Source: a virus (taxonomy: Duplodnaviria; Caudoviricetes). From it: a stretch of 56,541 nucleotides of DNA. The position numbers and the translations under genes are program-made. The stretch lies in IMG/VR virus record IMGVR_UViG_3300010354_000110, positions 1 through 56,541 of that record. One strand, 5' to 3'. The notes under the pieces are model-generated. The model did not search any database. It worked only from the letters and a program-made list of their open reading frames with translations, and was not told the DNA's origin. This document shows positions 3,198 through 51,645 of the stretch, piece by piece (the first letter of the stretch is position 1; each line of letters opens with the position of its first letter).

Positions 3198-4321
3198 CTC
3201 TTCATGAAGCAGTAGAAAAGTACGGCAGTAAGCGAGCTGCGGCAAAAGAACTGGGGATTCCATGGACCACGTTTAGGCGGCAATACAAGCAGGAAGTCAG
3301 CACTTCTGAGGTGGTTAATCAGCCTACAAACGAACTAGATGCTGCTGTACTTGCTGCTGGTTTTGATCTGGGAGACATTACCGGTGCATGGTTGAAATCA
3401 AAGACCGGCACAGTGCAGGTCAAGAAGAGGCGAAGTACAGAACCGAAGCAGTTGGGGGAGCACCTACAACATTACCTCAAAACCAGCCGCTCCCATGTGG
3501 TCCGTGGGACAGAGACTGTCTCAGAAAACTGCATGCTTGTTATCGGTCTCCATGATTTTCATCTGGGAAAATTGACATGGGATGTTGAGGTTGGGGAGGA
3601 TTACGATCTGGAGATTGCTTCGGCGGTCTACCGTCAGGCGGTTTCTGATACGTTGGGGTTCTTTGGGTCACCTTCAATAAATCGCATTGTGTTGCCGATT
3701 GGTAGTGATTTCTTTCATAGCAACAACTTCAAGAGTGAGACAGACTCCGGAACAAAGCTAGACTCAACAGACGACCGGATGTCTAAGGTGTTTGATTGTG
3801 GTGTAGCGGCTGTTGTGTCTGCAATTGATGATTGCGTGCAGATTGCTGATGTTCAGGTTGTCTGGATTCCTGGAAACCATGACCGTGAGAGTTCGTGGTA
3901 CTTGTCTCAGGTGCTGAGGCATCGCTATGAAGGAAATCCATATGTGACTATTGACCACAAGGACACTCCGAGAAAGTACGTTCGGTATGGCGATTCTTTG
4001 ATTGGGCTGACACACAAACCAAACAAACGATTGCCGCTTACAATGAGTATTGAGGCTGCTAAAGATTGGTCAGAAGTTCATACTAGGGAGTGGCTCGTGG
4101 GGCACTACCATACCCGGAGGGAAGAACGCTACATGGCCGCTAATGAAGAACTAGGCGTTGTTCAGCGTACTCTAGCAAGTCTGAGTACCTGTGACTCTTG
4201 GCATAACGAGAATATGTTCATTAACAACCTTCGTGCTGCTGAGTCGTTTCTGTACAGTTTTGATACTGGCTATGCTGGATCACGAATTGCGAAAGTGAGG
4301 AACGAATGGGGGCTGTTGTAG
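3194..4321 (+). CDS. calcineurin-like metallophosphoesterase with N-terminal HTH
   Basis: DFHLG, SDFFH, PGNHD, GHYH motifs; N-terminal GSKRAAAKELGIPWTTFRR HTH. Confidence 0.85.
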   Translation: MTLHEAVEKYGSKRAAAKELGIPWTTFRRQYKQEVSTSEVVNQPTNELDAAVLAAGFDLGDITGAWLKSKTGTVQVKKRRSTEPKQLGEHLQHYLKTSRSHVVRGTETVSENCMLVIGLHDFHLGKLTWDVEVGEDYDLEIASAVYRQAVSDTLGFFGSPSINRIVLPIGSDFFHSNNFKSETDSGTKLDSTDDRMSKVFDCGVAAVVSAIDDCVQIADVQVVWIPGNHDRESSWYLSQVLRHRYEGNPYVTIDHKDTPRKYVRYGDSLIGLTHKPNKRLPLTMSIEAAKDWSEVHTREWLVGHYHTRREERYMAANEELGVVQRTLASLSTCDSWHNENMFINNLRAAESFLYSFDTGYAGSRIAKVRNEWGLL

Positions 4322-4923
4322 ATTTGTTAGGGAGGCGGTTTGGCAGGCTGCTTGTTGTGGGTAGGGCTGAAAACAATAAGCACAATAAAGCCTGCTGGAC
4401 ATGCCTGTGTGATTGTGGTAGTACTACTGCAGTGGTTGGCGACTATCTTATAAAGGGGGATACGGCATCCTGCGGCTGTTTGTGGAAAGAGCGGGTTACC
4501 AAGCACGGTAAGTCTTATTCTCCTGAGTATGAGGTTTGGAAGAATATGATCCGGAGATGCACTAACCCTAACGCACAGGATTATCCCAACTATGGTGGTC
4601 GTGGCATAACCGTGTGCGAAGATTGGCTGAAGCTTGAGAACTTTTGCCGAGACATGGGACCTAGGCCAACAAGGTTGCATAGTTTAGAACGATCCGACAA
4701 CGACAAAGGTTACTGCAAAGAAAACTGTCGATGGGCAACTAAGAAAGAACAGAATAACAACAGGAGAAGTAGTCGTGTATTCACCTACAACGGTAAAACA
4801 CAGTCCTTGCAGTCCTGGGCTGATGCTCTTGAAATTTCTGTTAGTACTTTGTGGAGTAGGGTTAAGAATGGGTGGGACATCTCCAGAGTTTTGACAGAAC
4901 CTGTAAGTAACCCAAGAAAGTGA
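4306..4923 (+). CDS. HNH homing endonuclease
   Basis: DLLGRRFGRL..WTCLCDCG..SCGC, YGGRGI, HSLERSDNDKGYCKENCRWAT..EQNNNRR. Confidence 0.88.
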   Translation: MGAVVDLLGRRFGRLLVVGRAENNKHNKACWTCLCDCGSTTAVVGDYLIKGDTASCGCLWKERVTKHGKSYSPEYEVWKNMIRRCTNPNAQDYPNYGGRGITVCEDWLKLENFCRDMGPRPTRLHSLERSDNDKGYCKENCRWATKKEQNNNRRSSRVFTYNGKTQSLQSWADALEISVSTLWSRVKNGWDISRVLTEPVSNPRK

Positions 4924-32856: not shown

Positions 32857-32997
32857 ATGTCAGAACATCGTGTACCTGTCCTGCTGATAGCAAGGAATGG
32901 AGTGAGCTACCATGGTTTCAAGTGGGGGGAGCACTACTACGGATATGTGAGCAACCCAGGAAACTTCCGAATTGTCCAATTGACAAGGATTGACTAA
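32857..32997 (+). CDS. small protein, tandem paralog 2 (46 aa, not in ORF track)
   Basis: MSEHRVPVLL...SYHG...FRIVQLTRID*; abuts both neighbours. Confidence 0.6.
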   Translation: MSEHRVPVLLIARNGVSYHGFKWGEHYYGYVSNPGNFRIVQLTRID

Positions 32998-33215
32998 TGC
33001 CCGAGAAAATTCCTGTTGTGCTTAAATTTTCGGGGAGTCAGGGCGATACGCTGTATGGGGCCATGGACCCAGTGTCTAATACAGTCGCTGTTGGCTCTTA
33101 CCCTGGTGCAATAGAAGACCACCTTGCCAGAGTGTCGTACAGGGTTGTAACCTACACTGCCAACTTCCTGACATCGCTAGGGTGGCGTATTCTGCCCCTA
33201 ACAAGGATCGACTGA
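32997..33215 (+). CDS. small protein, tandem paralog 3
   Basis: MPEKIPVVL...LYG...WRILPLTRID*. Confidence 0.6.
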   Translation: MPEKIPVVLKFSGSQGDTLYGAMDPVSNTVAVGSYPGAIEDHLARVSYRVVTYTANFLTSLGWRILPLTRID

Positions 33216-33907
33216 TGAACACTGTCATTGCCTACATGCGTGTCTCAACTGACAAGCAAGACTCTATCGATACTCAGCAGGCAGCAATCAAACGCTACTG
33301 CGAGTACAACAACCTGACAATCGTTGGGGAGTACGTAGAGTCTCAGTCAGCATCGACCGTTGATAGACCACAGTTGCAGGCAGCACTTGCCAGACTAGGC
33401 ACGGACTGCTCAGGACTCGTGGTGTACAAGGCTGACCGGCTGAGTAGATCGCTCAAGGACTTACTTACCCTTCTGGACACCTACTTCAAGACACACAAGC
33501 TCCATGCTGTGGTCGATAAACTCGACACATCAACAGCAATGGGGACTGCCTTCGCTCAGTTGACTGGTGTGTTTTCTGAACTTGAACGATCAACCTTGAT
33601 CGAGCGTACAAGGGCAGGACTTAGGCACAGGAAGGAATCAGGCATGACCTACTGCCGTAGGCTGTATGGGTATGCCGGTGCCTCTGGTAAGGAACTGGAA
33701 GCAATACCAGCAGAGCAGAGAGTACTGAAGCAGATTCTGGAGAAAAGACGACAGCAGTGGTCTTTCCAGAAGATTGCCGACTGGTTAAACTCTCAGAACA
33801 TTCCTGCCCCTAACAGCGGCAAGCAGCACAAGGATAAGCCGGTCTCTGGTGACTGGCATAAGGGAACAGTTCACAGGATTTGCGAGAGGGCATTGGTGAG
33901 TCAATGA
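33215..33907 (+). CDS. serine recombinase (resolvase family with short recombinase domain)
   Basis: AYMRVSTDKQ catalytic Ser motif, RPQL, DRLSRS, DTSTAMG, FSELERSTLIERTRAG; TGATG overlap at the start. Confidence 0.92.
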   Translation: MNTVIAYMRVSTDKQDSIDTQQAAIKRYCEYNNLTIVGEYVESQSASTVDRPQLQAALARLGTDCSGLVVYKADRLSRSLKDLLTLLDTYFKTHKLHAVVDKLDTSTAMGTAFAQLTGVFSELERSTLIERTRAGLRHRKESGMTYCRRLYGYAGASGKELEAIPAEQRVLKQILEKRRQQWSFQKIADWLNSQNIPAPNSGKQHKDKPVSGDWHKGTVHRICERALVSQ

Positions 33908-33913
33908 GTACGC

Positions 33914-33988
33914 TTCCCTGTAGCTCAATCGGTTAGAGCAGCGAACTCATAATTCGTTGACAGAGGTTCGCGAATCCTCTCGGGGAAA
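33914..33988 (+). tRNA. tRNA with CAT anticodon (Met or Ile2), 9-nt T-loop, no encoded CCA
   Basis: Acceptor TTCCCTG/CGGGGAA, D arm GCTC..GAGC, anticodon arm GCGAA-CTCATAA-TTCGT, T arm AGAGG-TTCGCGAAT-CCTCT. Confidence 0.8.
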
Positions 33989-34015
33989 TGCTGTCCGATG
34001 TTCGGATGGTTGCCA

Positions 34016-34096
34016 GCGGCTTGGTCCGGTAGGGTCTGGCGTGGCAAGGTTTGGTGAGGCTGGCTAAGGTCTGGCCGGGTAAGGGGTCTAACGACC
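34016..34096 (+). ncRNA. NN-GGY pentamer array 1 (14 units) with terminal hairpin; candidate guide RNA
   Basis: GC-GGC TT-GGT CC-GGT AG-GGT CT-GGC GT-GGC AA-GGT TT-GGT GA-GGC TG-GCT AA-GGT CT-GGC CG-GGT AA-GGG, then hairpin GGTC-TAAC-GACC. Confidence 0.75.
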
Positions 34097-34109
34097 ATTC
34101 ACAGGAGAG

Positions 34110-34766
34110 ATGACAATGCGAAAATTCGACTTCGTTCTCACAGGCTTCATGCCTCTGCTCATGCACGCCGATGATATCGATGGTGCAGATGAATTGGAGG
34201 CATGGCGGAAGAATCCAAGAAACAAGAACATCAGTAAGGCTGGTGATGATCGCTCACCAGCATGGACATGGCAGACCTACCTATACCACCACAAGGGGTG
34301 TGTGGTCATGCCCAGCGAAAACATCATGGCAGCCCTGCGAACAGCCGGTGCCCAGCTGATTCTCAAGAAGCAGAAGACCTTCAAGGAAGTGTCTCAAAGC
34401 GGTCTGCTGATTGAGGGTGAGTGCTGCAATTTCTACAACGCCGGAAAGGCTGTCAGCTACGACCAGATTCAAGCCTTCCGAGATGAGCCTTGGCAGACCC
34501 ACATCCAGAAGGTTGAGTCGATGGGCTTCACGTTGTTCAAGAAGCGTGCTCGGGTGGGGACATCAAAGCACATCCGGGTGCGGCCTAAGTTCGATTCGTG
34601 GTCAGTCACCGGTACGATCATGGTGTTGAAGGAAGAAATCACACAGCCAATTCTGGAGCAGTTGTTCCAGTTGGCCGGTCGTGCTGGTCTGTGCGATTGG
34701 CGACCTGGTTGTAAGACACCAGGACCATACGGACAATTTGAGGCATCGCTGACCGAAGTCAAATAG
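34110..34766 (+). CDS. stand-alone Cas7/RAMP-like protein flanked by NN-GGY arrays
   Basis: N-terminal strand FVLTGFMPLLMH; VVMPSENIMAALR (cf. Cas7 IPGSSlKGalR); RVRPKF; C-terminal Gly-rich loop GLCDWRPGCKTPGPYGQF. AGGAG RBS. Confidence 0.7.
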   Translation: MTMRKFDFVLTGFMPLLMHADDIDGADELEAWRKNPRNKNISKAGDDRSPAWTWQTYLYHHKGCVVMPSENIMAALRTAGAQLILKKQKTFKEVSQSGLLIEGECCNFYNAGKAVSYDQIQAFRDEPWQTHIQKVESMGFTLFKKRARVGTSKHIRVRPKFDSWSVTGTIMVLKEEITQPILEQLFQLAGRAGLCDWRPGCKTPGPYGQFEASLTEVK

Positions 34767-34770
34767 TGTT

Positions 34771-34846
34771 GCGGTAAGGTCAGGCTTGGCTTGGCACGGC
34801 GAGGCGCGGTGCGGCGAGGTTTGGTCCGGCAAGGGAGCGTAAGCTC
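34771..34846 (+). ncRNA. NN-GGY pentamer array 2 (13 units) with terminal hairpin; candidate guide RNA
   Basis: GC-GGT AA-GGT CA-GGC TT-GGC TT-GGC AC-GGC GA-GGC GC-GGT GC-GGC GA-GGT TT-GGT CC-GGC AA-GGG, then hairpin GAGC-GTAA-GCTC. Confidence 0.78.
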
Positions 34847-34866
34847 ATTTCACACAAGGAGACAGC

Positions 34867-35355
34867 ATGTTCAAACACGATCCAGAGATTGCTGCCAAGG
34901 TAGAAAGCCTCTACCAAATGGCAAGAGGAATGCAGAGAGGGGATACCCTCCTGTGGTCACAGATCGAATCACATCTCCAGATGACTCGCAATGAGCCACG
35001 GATGCGGTACATTGTTGCAAAGTGGCGGAAACGCCTGCTGACACAGGACAAGATTGAAACATGGAAAGAGCCTAATGTTGGAATCAGGCTCTTGCACGAT
35101 GGTGAGTGTATCAGTGTTGTTGCTGTCAAACGCAACAAGTTCGCTTCACGACATCATACCAAGATTCTTAAGGCAATGGGTGTTGCCCGCAATGAGCAAC
35201 TCAGCGACAATGAGCGGTTGATGAAGATTGCCATTACTGACCACAGCAGGGAGGCAAGGTCTTCTGCCCGTCGTGCTGCCAAGGCCGGGAATGTTTCTTC
35301 TGACCGTCAGAAACTGCTTGCTATCATCCAACAGGACCGGCCATGTTCACAGTAA
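34867..35355 (+). CDS. basic hypothetical protein, possible accessory of the RAMP/array locus
   Basis: AAGGAG RBS directly after array 2; Arg/Lys-rich with a possible winged-helix N-terminus. Confidence 0.7.
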   Translation: MFKHDPEIAAKVESLYQMARGMQRGDTLLWSQIESHLQMTRNEPRMRYIVAKWRKRLLTQDKIETWKEPNVGIRLLHDGECISVVAVKRNKFASRHHTKILKAMGVARNEQLSDNERLMKIAITDHSREARSSARRAAKAGNVSSDRQKLLAIIQQDRPCSQ

Positions 35356-35480
35356 TCATCGATTTCGGCAGGTCTAAACAGGAAGTCACTGTTCAGACTT
35401 ACAAAGATGCTCTGGATAGGGCAAAGTTCGAGCGTGAACGATATCCAGAAGCAACTGTGTCCATTGAACCTGCGTTTTGA
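35343..35480 (+). CDS. small hypothetical protein (45 aa, not in ORF track)
   Basis: MFTVIIDFGRSKQ...PAF*; overlaps the upstream stop; AGGA RBS. Confidence 0.45.
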   Translation: MFTVIIDFGRSKQEVTVQTYKDALDRAKFERERYPEATVSIEPAF

Positions 35481-35492
35481 GGAGAAACTCCC

Positions 35493-35666
35493 ATGAAGAT
35501 TCTTGCCCAGATTGACCATGCCGGTGAAATCTACTGGCTACTTGTCAGCGCTTTTGGCTGCCTGCAGGTCATTGAGTTTTCTGTGGACACCATCTATGTC
35601 AGGTCAATGGACTACATGGAAAAGTGCGAGCCAGAAGTGCTCTTTGATCTGACCAGCAAACTGTAG
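35493..35666 (+). CDS. small hypothetical protein (57 aa, not in ORF track)
   Basis: GAGGAG RBS; MKILAQIDHAGEIYW... Confidence 0.5.
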   Translation: MKILAQIDHAGEIYWLLVSAFGCLQVIEFSVDTIYVRSMDYMEKCEPEVLFDLTSKL

Positions 35667-35669
35667 CTG

Positions 35670-35769
35670 TAACGCTCTAGGATCGCTTCTGTGACCTCCG
35701 GATTATCTGGACATACTTTGGGTCATGTTGACCCATTCCAGGGCTTCCTGAGCGATGCTAGGGGCCTTA
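35670..35769. repeat. dispersed ~95-bp imperfect palindrome, copy C
   Basis: TAACGCTCTAGGATCGCTT ... GGACATACTTT ... GGGCTTCCTGAGCGATGCTAG. Confidence 0.55.
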
Positions 35770-35903
35770 AAACGCATTTTGGAAGGTGTTTTCTGGTCAT
35801 TTCTAGGTGTCACTGTCTGACCACAGAGAAATCAATGCATTCTGCCGAATACTGCTGTCATGTTGGCGGTAGTATTCTGACCACACGACACAGAGAAAGG
35901 TGA

Positions 35904-36773
35904 ATGATGGCTCAAATTGGAGTCCCGCGAAAGTACGAGGACGGGCAGTGGCGTCATCCGTGGGTTCCGGCGGTGGGGGACACCAGGCCGGAGGGGATGG
36001 AGATGCTTTGCAAAGTGTCTGGTGGTGGATTCACATGGGAAGCCGTGCCCGTACTCGCACCTATCAGCAGGGAGCGTGTCTACCGCATCCCCGCCGACTA
36101 CATCCCGCCCGATGGCTGGAGGTGCCTGGAGTGGGACGAGGTTGTGCAGGATGGAGATCGATGGACTCACAACGCCGGAGGCCATGCAATCAAACGCGGT
36201 GAGCGTTTACATAACACCAGATTCGGAGCCAAGGCATCGGAGGCGATTAATGGTCTGAAGGGAGGAGGCTACATCATCCGGAAGGAAGTGCCATGCAAGA
36301 GCGATGCGAGCGATGTCCCAAGTGCGAAGGGAGTGGCGAGTACGTCAGTCAGTATGGAAGTAGACAAGGATGCAAACTGCGATGCAGATGCAAAGCCGGT
36401 CGCGTGGCAGTTCCGGAAAGAGCCGATTCCGGTGGAAACGGAACTGGTAGTTCTGAGAGTCGGTGCGGAGATTCAAGCAGGCGATGAATTCTGGAACGGA
36501 TCACGCTGGCGTCATGTTGACTCGCTCGATCATGGACAGTCAGTAGGCGTGAAGTGCCCAGTCTGCCGCCCGCGTCCGATTCCCCAGACGTGGACGATCG
36601 ACACGATTCCGGATGGGCGGTGCTTTGAGTGTTGTGGTTACACCGGCGTGTTTTGGAAAGACCTGTCTGGCTGTTTCTGGCGACTCGACGCGGCGCAGGT
36701 TTCAAAGGGCTGGCACCCGTCAAAGCAGATCACACCAGTAGACATCGTGGCCGAACTGGGAGAAGTGAAGTGA
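35904..36773 (+). CDS. mosaic hypothetical protein
   Basis: 289 aa; two W..L...E..Q.GD.W modules; TIDTIPDGRCF module shared with 21730..22170. Confidence 0.65.
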   Translation: MMAQIGVPRKYEDGQWRHPWVPAVGDTRPEGMEMLCKVSGGGFTWEAVPVLAPISRERVYRIPADYIPPDGWRCLEWDEVVQDGDRWTHNAGGHAIKRGERLHNTRFGAKASEAINGLKGGGYIIRKEVPCKSDASDVPSAKGVASTSVSMEVDKDANCDADAKPVAWQFRKEPIPVETELVVLRVGAEIQAGDEFWNGSRWRHVDSLDHGQSVGVKCPVCRPRPIPQTWTIDTIPDGRCFECCGYTGVFWKDLSGCFWRLDAAQVSKGWHPSKQITPVDIVAELGEVK

Positions 36774-51569: not shown

Positions 51570-51645
51570 TGGTGGAGGCCAGATTTGAACTGGCGATCTT
51601 CAGCTAATGAGGCTGACGGGGACGACCAGACTCCCCTACTCCACT
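51570..51645 (-). tRNA. tRNA-Met(CAT), initiator-like
   Basis: AGTGGAG/CTCCACC with 1:72 mismatch, GGGG..CCCC D stem, TCAGC-CTCATTA-GCTGA, AGATC variable loop, GCCAG-TTCAAAT-CTGGC. Confidence 0.82.

Follow-up and report, generated by a model that had tools for sequence, protein, structure and literature searches.

The window, a stretch of 56,541 nucleotides from an IMG/VR virus contig (IMGVR_UViG_3300010354_000110) that is 55% complete according to CheckV, carries genes for a terminase, a portal protein, DNA polymerase I and a primase-helicase, and therefore belongs to a tailed phage. The 24 runs that contain it are aquatic and freshwater metagenomes, none of them recorded as RNA. A compact module lies on its + strand, beginning with a tRNA-Met gene (anticodon CAT, 33914-33988; called by ARAGORN and matched by Rfam RF00005 at 61.6 bits). 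Directly 3' of this gene is a first repeat array, array 1 (34016-34096), which comprises repeat units (34016-34080), the pentamer AAGGG (34081-34085) and a hairpin (34085-34096). A gene encoding a 218-aa protein (34110-34766) separates it from array 2, whose repeat tract spans 34771-34835 and whose hairpin, GAGC-GTAA-GCTC, spans 34835-34846. The module ends with a gene for a 162-aa protein (34867-35355) that starts with ATG at 34867 and is preceded by a Shine-Dalgarno-like AAGGAGA, read from the sequence at 34856-34862, 10 nt past the hairpin; no array lies 3' of this gene in the window. A promoter and terminator scan of 32900-36000 gave four promoter-like sites, against 2.1 expected, and no terminators, an uninformative result. 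Rfam detected nothing besides the tRNA between 33000 and 36000.

A short serine recombinase gene (33182-33907), with a resolvase N-terminal domain at 1.3e-34 and a partial Recombinase domain, is located directly 5' of the tRNA-Met gene and the module. A second tRNA-Met gene is found on the minus strand at 51570-51645. Between the first tRNA-Met gene and array 1, which starts 27 nt past it, a 9-bp hairpin occupies about 33990-34010. The tRNA-Met may supply the processed 5' side of the array 1 RNA; a tRNA next to arrays is not general in the clade, with any tRNA call in three of 82 loci. Where a gene comes after an array, an A/T-rich 'TTTCACA'-like stretch is seen between the hairpin and the GGAG ribosome-binding site, both in the window (34847-34866 and 34097-34109) and in several relatives.

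The 218-aa protein was assigned to no Pfam, NCBIfam or PADLOC family. It matches phrog_4652, a group of unknown function, at 2.4e-20, and is a member of a large unnamed family, as 964 proteins were recovered at E ≤0.001 among 1053 candidates. Its sole match among PDB sequences is 36pp_D, the 'SUSP1 Vipr protein', at E 4.1e-7 with the single protein and 7.4e-11 with a profile derived from a 35-sequence alignment; the likeness is weak and confined mostly to the C-terminal 60 residues. An AF2 model computed with the 35-sequence alignment (pLDDT 89.6, pTM 0.85) was compared with the PDB using Foldseek. Chains of Csm3 and type VII Cas7 ranked highest (best E 3.8e-6), with a total of 83 matches at E ≤0.001, and the model therefore exhibits a RAMP fold, which bears out the RAMP gene call made in a preliminary description of this DNA. 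In SUSP1 Vipr, residues H17, R138, D177, W178 and R179 hold the G1, G2 and Y3 bases of the repeat (10.64898/2026.04.26.720927). These residues align by HMMER to H19, R158, D196, W197 and R198 of the window protein, all five of which are invariant across 35 family members. Judged by these sequence comparisons, the 218-aa protein is a Vipr homologue. Phage-database homologues were limited to one in Pseudomonas phage LESphi2 and one in Gordonia phage Trine, each sharing 29.5% identity with it.

VIPR, for Viral Interference Programmable Repeat, is described as a CRISPR-like system of phages, first reported in 2026, in which RNA guides the silencing of DNA; it is built around a phage-borne minimal RAMP protein of about 20 kDa, Vipr, together with a small accessory gene, vap (10.64898/2026.04.26.720920). 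The vipr gene is flanked by vrRNAs, each made up of 9-16 YNNGG units, in which GGY is invariant and NN hypervariable, and a constant structured tail (10.64898/2026.04.26.720920). The NN pairs read double-stranded DNA by a '1 nt skip rule', whereby every third target base is skipped (10.64898/2026.04.26.720920), and the mechanism is summarized as filament formation, the 1-nt skip and silencing (10.64898/2026.04.26.720920, 10.64898/2026.04.26.720927). Two further preprints deal with competition (10.64898/2026.10.15.759431) and with a language-model survey (10.64898/2026.10.21.760802). The exemplars tested are the type II system of Escherichia phage SUSP1 and a Pseudomonas fulva prophage (10.64898/2026.04.26.720920, 10.64898/2026.04.26.720927, 10.64898/2026.10.15.759431).

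Array 2 conforms closely to this description. Direct reading of 34771-34830 gives the units GCGGT, AAGGT, CAGGC, TTGGC, TTGGC, ACGGC, GAGGC, GCGGT, GCGGC, GAGGT, TTGGT and CCGGC, followed by AAGGG at 34831-34835, that is, the 12 perfect NN-GGY units plus AA-GGG that the preliminary description had noticed, with exactly the NN series it gave (GC, AA, CA, TT, TT, AC, GA, GC, GC, GA, TT, CC, AA). Its placement of the array 5 nt after the stop codon of the RAMP gene is likewise correct: the TAG occupies 34764-34766, TGTT lies between, and the array starts with the fifth base. In the published YNNGG register all 13 units of array 2 are perfect (34770-34834), its size being 13 units when the terminal NNGGG is counted. 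The first G of the hairpin GAGC-GTAA-GCTC is the last G of AAGGG. Array 1 is organized in the same manner, with 13 NN-GGY units (one degenerate, TGGCT), AAGGG and a tail hairpin, GGTC-TAAC-GACC. The pattern (GGYNN)x4+GGY, allowing at most one mismatch, occurs 19 times in the window against 0.05 occurrences expected from shuffles, and all 19 matches are on the + strand and confined to the two arrays. When no mismatch is allowed, the whole 56.5-kb record holds 13 forward matches, no reverse matches and none for the backwards control. The repeat tract folds no better than shuffled controls (z -1.2 and -0.3), and this lack of a fold of its own is as expected of a guide held by protein.

The two arrays differ in order, as previously claimed, and are not a simple duplication; the best ungapped offsets of their NN series give 5/14, 7/20 and 9/26 identical letters. 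The compensatory stem change that had been proposed between their hairpins is also present, two of the four pairs differing on both sides, and is one instance of a general covariation among relatives (see below). Unrelated NN series, free NN positions and the Vipr homologue encoded between the arrays together support the earlier suggestion of two different guides flanking the RAMP gene. The dinucleotide code with one skipped base that was predicted from the letters (AAnCAnTTn...) is the published 1-nt-skip rule.

Arrays of this kind were sought in 80 IMG/VR loci encoding relatives of the 218-aa protein (40-67% identity). To call an array, five or more in-register NN-GGY units had to be perfect, while isolated two-of-three units were accepted. 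All 80 loci contain arrays; within 414 kb, 395 arrays are on the strand of the gene and one is on the other, and none lies inside vipr. An array starts less than 120 nt past vipr, the position of array 2, in 62 of the 76 loci with enough flank, and one ends less than 200 nt before vipr in 48 of 77. The NN dinucleotides carry 3.93 of 4 bits of entropy (4428 units); the GGY columns are fixed by the array calling itself and are uninformative on conservation. An independent view of the variability came from near relatives on contigs of four runs, which are freshwater or fungus metagenomes. For array 1, the best-supported rows of two runs list 22 differences, 15 at NN, five C/T exchanges at Y and two at G, one of which adjoins alignment gaps. 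Among the listed differences, these 22 fall within about 70 nt of array 1, compared with at most about 28 in the next 468 nt of vipr on the same contig. At array 2, relatives from two runs carry 183 letters between 34766 and 34798, and those from one run have 139 letters inserted at 34830/34831, which would fit the gain or loss of entire guide modules.

In the related loci, NNGGG directly follows 210 of the 395 arrays, and arrays with this tail have a median of 13 units, the terminal unit counted, with 73% having 9-16 units (n=199). A stem of at least 4 bp is found in 178 of 191 unique 30-nt tails, against 69 of 191 after shuffling. These stems mostly begin at the last G and enclose a loop of 3-4 nt, and the 58 distinct stem sequences among them show that the hairpin covaries. 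In the terminal unit, the NN pair shows a bias, being AA in 96 of 191 tails, GA in 34 and AT in 27, which places the terminal AA-GGG with the tail more than with the guide. At the other end, GC is enriched only about twofold in the first unit (17% vs 9%), and the first unit GC of array 2 may well be read.

These comparisons bear on whether the tract acts as RNA at all. A protein-coding stretch is conceivable in that short ORFs overlap the tract (34791-34994 on the + strand and 34602-34832 on the minus strand), DNA iterons have also been considered, and the GG spacing formally suits a two-tier G-quadruplex motif (G2N3, GG-N3-GG). All three readings are highly improbable. The arrays vary by whole 5-nt units and stand outside genes, the inserted 139 or 183 letters of relatives fall at array 2 itself, the strand bias of 395 to 1 and the covarying stems point to a transcribed strand, and the relatives of the neighboring protein bind exactly such an RNA repeat. 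Translation of the region as part of a conserved protein, which the preliminary description had named as the finding that would speak against a guide, is thus not what the relatives show: their unit numbers differ, insertions occur and no array lies inside vipr. The region is regarded as non-coding because the 5-nt units vary in number between relatives and reading frames are not kept.

Taken together, 34771-34835 and the hairpin extending to 34846 represent, with a probability of about 0.9, the guide and the tail segments of a VIPR RNA, designated vrRNA2, with array 1 corresponding to vrRNA1. The locus is very probably a further example of the known VIPR kind and no new system.

The 162-aa gene that follows vrRNA2 is, from sequence comparison, probably vap, the vipr-accessory protein gene. 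By tblastn, 23 of 82 loci contain a relative; each of these adjoins vipr, and all but one are downstream of it. A 22-sequence profile of the protein has hhalign matches to the Trine ORF that follows the arrays (96.2%, E 2.4e-9) and to LESphi2 P21_8 (90.5%, E 1.3e-6). A word-indexed homologue search with the protein found two homologues only, and its profile found nothing meaningful among PDB sequences. In the AF2 model (pLDDT 90.8), long helices come after an N-terminal helix-strand-helix-helix-hairpin unit, for which Foldseek yields weak matches to winged-helix DNA-binding proteins of the OmpR, ArsR, MarR and GntR types (E 0.05-0.1), with none at E ≤0.001. Some vap genes are described as winged-helix-like (10.64898/2026.04.26.720920), a description with which the weak winged-helix likeness of the 162-aa protein agrees.

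The proximity of vrRNA2 to this gene raises the possibility that the array acts also, or instead, in cis as a vap leader, such that Vipr polymerizing on the repeat would control vap translation or cleavage of the transcript in a TRAP-like manner and couple Vap output to the amount of Vipr. In the trp leader RNA of Bacillus, TRAP recognizes 11 G/UAG triplets separated by spacers of 2-3 nt. The resemblance lies in the conserved triplets with two free bases between them, the one oligomer subunit per triplet and the position in a 5' leader; unlike Vipr, a RAMP protein, TRAP is a beta-sandwich, and its spacers carry no information, whereas those of the window do. A TRAP-like or CsrA-like leader and a G-quadruplex were the first ideas considered for array 2 and were dropped once the protein matched Vipr. 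The geometry of the locus would suit a leader, as only 20 nt separate the end of the hairpin (34846) from the vap ATG (34867), with the Shine-Dalgarno-like sequence between. Between vipr and vap, no site resembling a terminator was found, and the array is therefore probably on the vap mRNA. The position right after vipr recurs in the 62 of 76 related loci mentioned above, and arrays lie between vipr and vap in 22 of the 23 loci with a vap homologue, namely all those in which vap is downstream. However, many relatives have arrays after vap or only upstream of vipr, hypervariable NN pairs and a variable number of arrays suit guides better than a fixed operator, and the published work treats the arrays as trans-acting guides. 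A role as vap leader is considered unlikely.

The two phage-database homologues of the window protein display related organizations. In LESphi2 (OQ594955, L001), three unannotated NN-GGC arrays, each ending with RAGGG and a hairpin, are present at about 2585-2900, between a 'sigma factor' gene and the gene for the hypothetical protein P21_9, that is, 5' of the vipr homologue. P21_9 is a Vipr homologue and P21_8 is encoded by a vap-like gene; LESphi2, a prophage of a clinical isolate, therefore carries an unannotated VIPR system. Trine has two arrays 3' of its vipr homologue. In this phage (MH271318, L002), three 46-nt tRNA-like minihelices flank the two GGC-NN arrays at 3567-3842; each comprises an acceptor-like stem and a T-arm with GGTTCGACTCC, and ARAGORN calls one of them a defective tRNA. 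The arrangement resembles a tRNA-punctuated vrRNA array, which RNase P/Z would be likely to process. Trine CDS 40 as deposited (3573-4376) starts inside the minihelix and array region. An in-frame ATG at 3870, with GAGAGGA upstream, would give a 168-aa protein that matches the vap-like profile, and the annotated start is probably about 99 codons too early. In the loci of LESphi2 and Trine, Rfam returned nothing. Some related loci (L055 3163-3362; L042 2324-2468 and 3169-3303; L038 3296-3420 and 3944-4073) also contain 25-40 units in unbroken succession. Such runs greatly exceed the 9-16 units reported per single vrRNA and may be tail-less concatenated or staggered arrays.

Targets of vrRNA2 were sought with the gapped search that the preliminary description had proposed, which gave no significant target in the viral, metagenome and genome collections. 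Within the window there was no self-target with three or fewer mismatches, the best score being 15/22; published VIPR systems are likewise reported to show no self-targeting (10.64898/2026.04.26.720920). The exact 11-unit pattern of array 2 had no match in the viral, metagenome or genome contig collections. A 9-unit seed matched 8, 40 and 43 stretches in these collections, respectively, and the 91 seed matches extend to at most 23/26, as predicted for chance extension. With three spaced 8-unit seeds, 24, 66 and 19 stretches were found in viral contigs, the best being 21/22 in two records, L168 and L095. The L168 match is inside a Cellvibrionales MAG gene for a beta-ketoacyl synthase (PF00109/PF02801); the L095 match lies outside any ORF of at least 80 aa. 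Both were dropped as candidates, as about 4-5 matches of 21/22 are expected by chance in 596 Gb by our estimate. The large collections were scanned by exact seeds, a procedure that misses targets with scattered mismatches.

Smaller sets were compared as well. In the window and 82 VIPR loci (0.97 Mb, both strands), the best array 2 score was 18/26, a value reached by 73 of 100 shuffled guides. For 50 of the 80 related phages the entire record was scanned, and array 2 had no match there with three or fewer mismatches (≥19/22). Read in codon register, the array 2 guide corresponds to [A][K/N][H/Q][F/L][F/L]T[D/E]AA[D/E][F/L]P, and its other strand to G[K/N]SAASV[K/N][K/N][C/W][F/L]; at the peptide level, nothing within four residues of the array 1 or the array 2 guide was found in the six frames of the window and the 82 loci. 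The masked exact pattern of array 1 was absent from the viral contigs. When the array 1 guide was scored against the same 0.97 Mb, positions 87-127 of L060, on the minus strand, agreed at 22 of 28 informative positions, where 100 shuffled guides reached at most 20. L060 is a 36.8-kb IMG/VR record with terminal repeats, and the site is about 500 nt upstream of an XRE-like HTH ORF (609-866). Six of the nine units on the 5' side contain the mismatches, and the agreement, 79%, stays below the published 80% line. The site is thus a weak lead to an array 1 target in a related phage.

The lack of a significant match for array 2 in the collections searched, and of a peptide-level match in the window and 82 loci, would also be compatible with a vrRNA2 that has no current target and persists as a decayed guide, a decoy or a spare. 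The array itself gives little sign of decay, as it retains 12 perfect GGY units out of 12 and an intact tail, which implies that it is either under selection or young. Moreover, the blank result is weak evidence, given that exact seeds miss scattered mismatches and that phages of this habitat are thinly sampled. A targetless vrRNA2 is considered rather improbable.

Several properties are shared with the VIPR systems already tested: a RAMP protein of about 200 aa that stands alone and retains the GGY-contact residues; same-strand flanking arrays of 9-16 YNNGG units with free NN and a constant structured 3' tail; a small downstream gene, here a probable vap, whose product weakly resembles winged-helix domains; a phage carrier; and no self-targeting. 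Sequence similarity between the window protein and SUSP1 Vipr is, in contrast, weak (E 4e-7). The SUSP1 clade has a pseudoknot tail, of which the window clade shows no trace; its tail is a hairpin of 4-5 bp that begins with the last G of NNGGG. SUSP1 places one vrRNA upstream of its genes and three downstream; in the window, one precedes vipr and the second is set between vipr and vap. Unlike in SUSP1, vrRNA1 of the window lies directly after a tRNA gene.

The comparison extends to class 1 CRISPR backbones, in which Cas7/Csm3 proteins assemble on the crRNA. Common to both are the RAMP fold, one protomer per RNA segment and a thumb that breaks pairing periodically. The period is 5 nt in VIPR (three hidden, two read) and 6 nt in class 1 CRISPR (five read), and the VIPR guide is a tandem repeat as opposed to a CRISPR spacer. 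Tandem Repeats Finder detected no CRISPR-like repeat-spacer array in the window, and the PADLOC, NCBIfam and Pfam Cas families had no match to the three proteins of the locus.

By analogy to the family, the following course of events may be envisaged. The + strand would be transcribed through tRNA-Met, vrRNA1, vipr, vrRNA2 and vap, and an RNA of about 80 nt, reaching from the vipr stop codon to the hairpin, would be cut out. One Vipr protomer would presumably bind each 5-nt unit, hiding GGY and presenting NN, such that about 12-13 protomers form a helical filament. The terminal AA-GGG and the hairpin would serve as the constant tail, outside the guide. The filament is predicted to read, on either strand of double-stranded DNA, the series AAx-CAx-TTx-TTx-ACx-GAx-GCx-GCx-GAx-TTx-CC, perhaps with GCx in front, the third base (x) being skipped. 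Binding would block transcription of a gene in a competing phage, satellite or prophage, and vrRNA1, with its unrelated NN series, would be directed to a different target. Given the bare hairpin tail and the weak similarity to SUSP1 Vipr, we infer the exact rule (skip length and protomer number) for the window clade from the family.

A more elaborate arrangement, in which the guides are built into the operon mRNA of the window clade as a tRNA-punctuated, self-regulating array, is a tentative idea that we consider doubtful. Under the tRNA-punctuated part of this idea, vrRNA1 would be freed from behind the tRNA, and the Trine arrays would be cut out at the minihelices by host RNase P/Z. Under the self-regulating part, vrRNA2 would double as the vap leader, and the loading of Vipr onto its own guide would set Vap output. 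Arrays of this type were not found in the main texts of two VIPR preprints (10.64898/2026.04.26.720920, 10.64898/2026.10.15.759431), neither of which contains the word 'tRNA'.

VIPR is a very recent discovery and has been proposed as an ancestor of CRISPR effectors. The present locus changes no concept; it adds a clean and complete example, with two guides, vipr and a probable vap, from an uncultivated freshwater tailed phage, and is of value for annotation, phrog_4652 corresponding to Vipr. In a clade far from SUSP1 and with a simpler hairpin tail, both the GGY/NN rule and the contact residues are preserved, and the locus may thus offer a compact candidate system for probing the generality of the 1-nt-skip rule.
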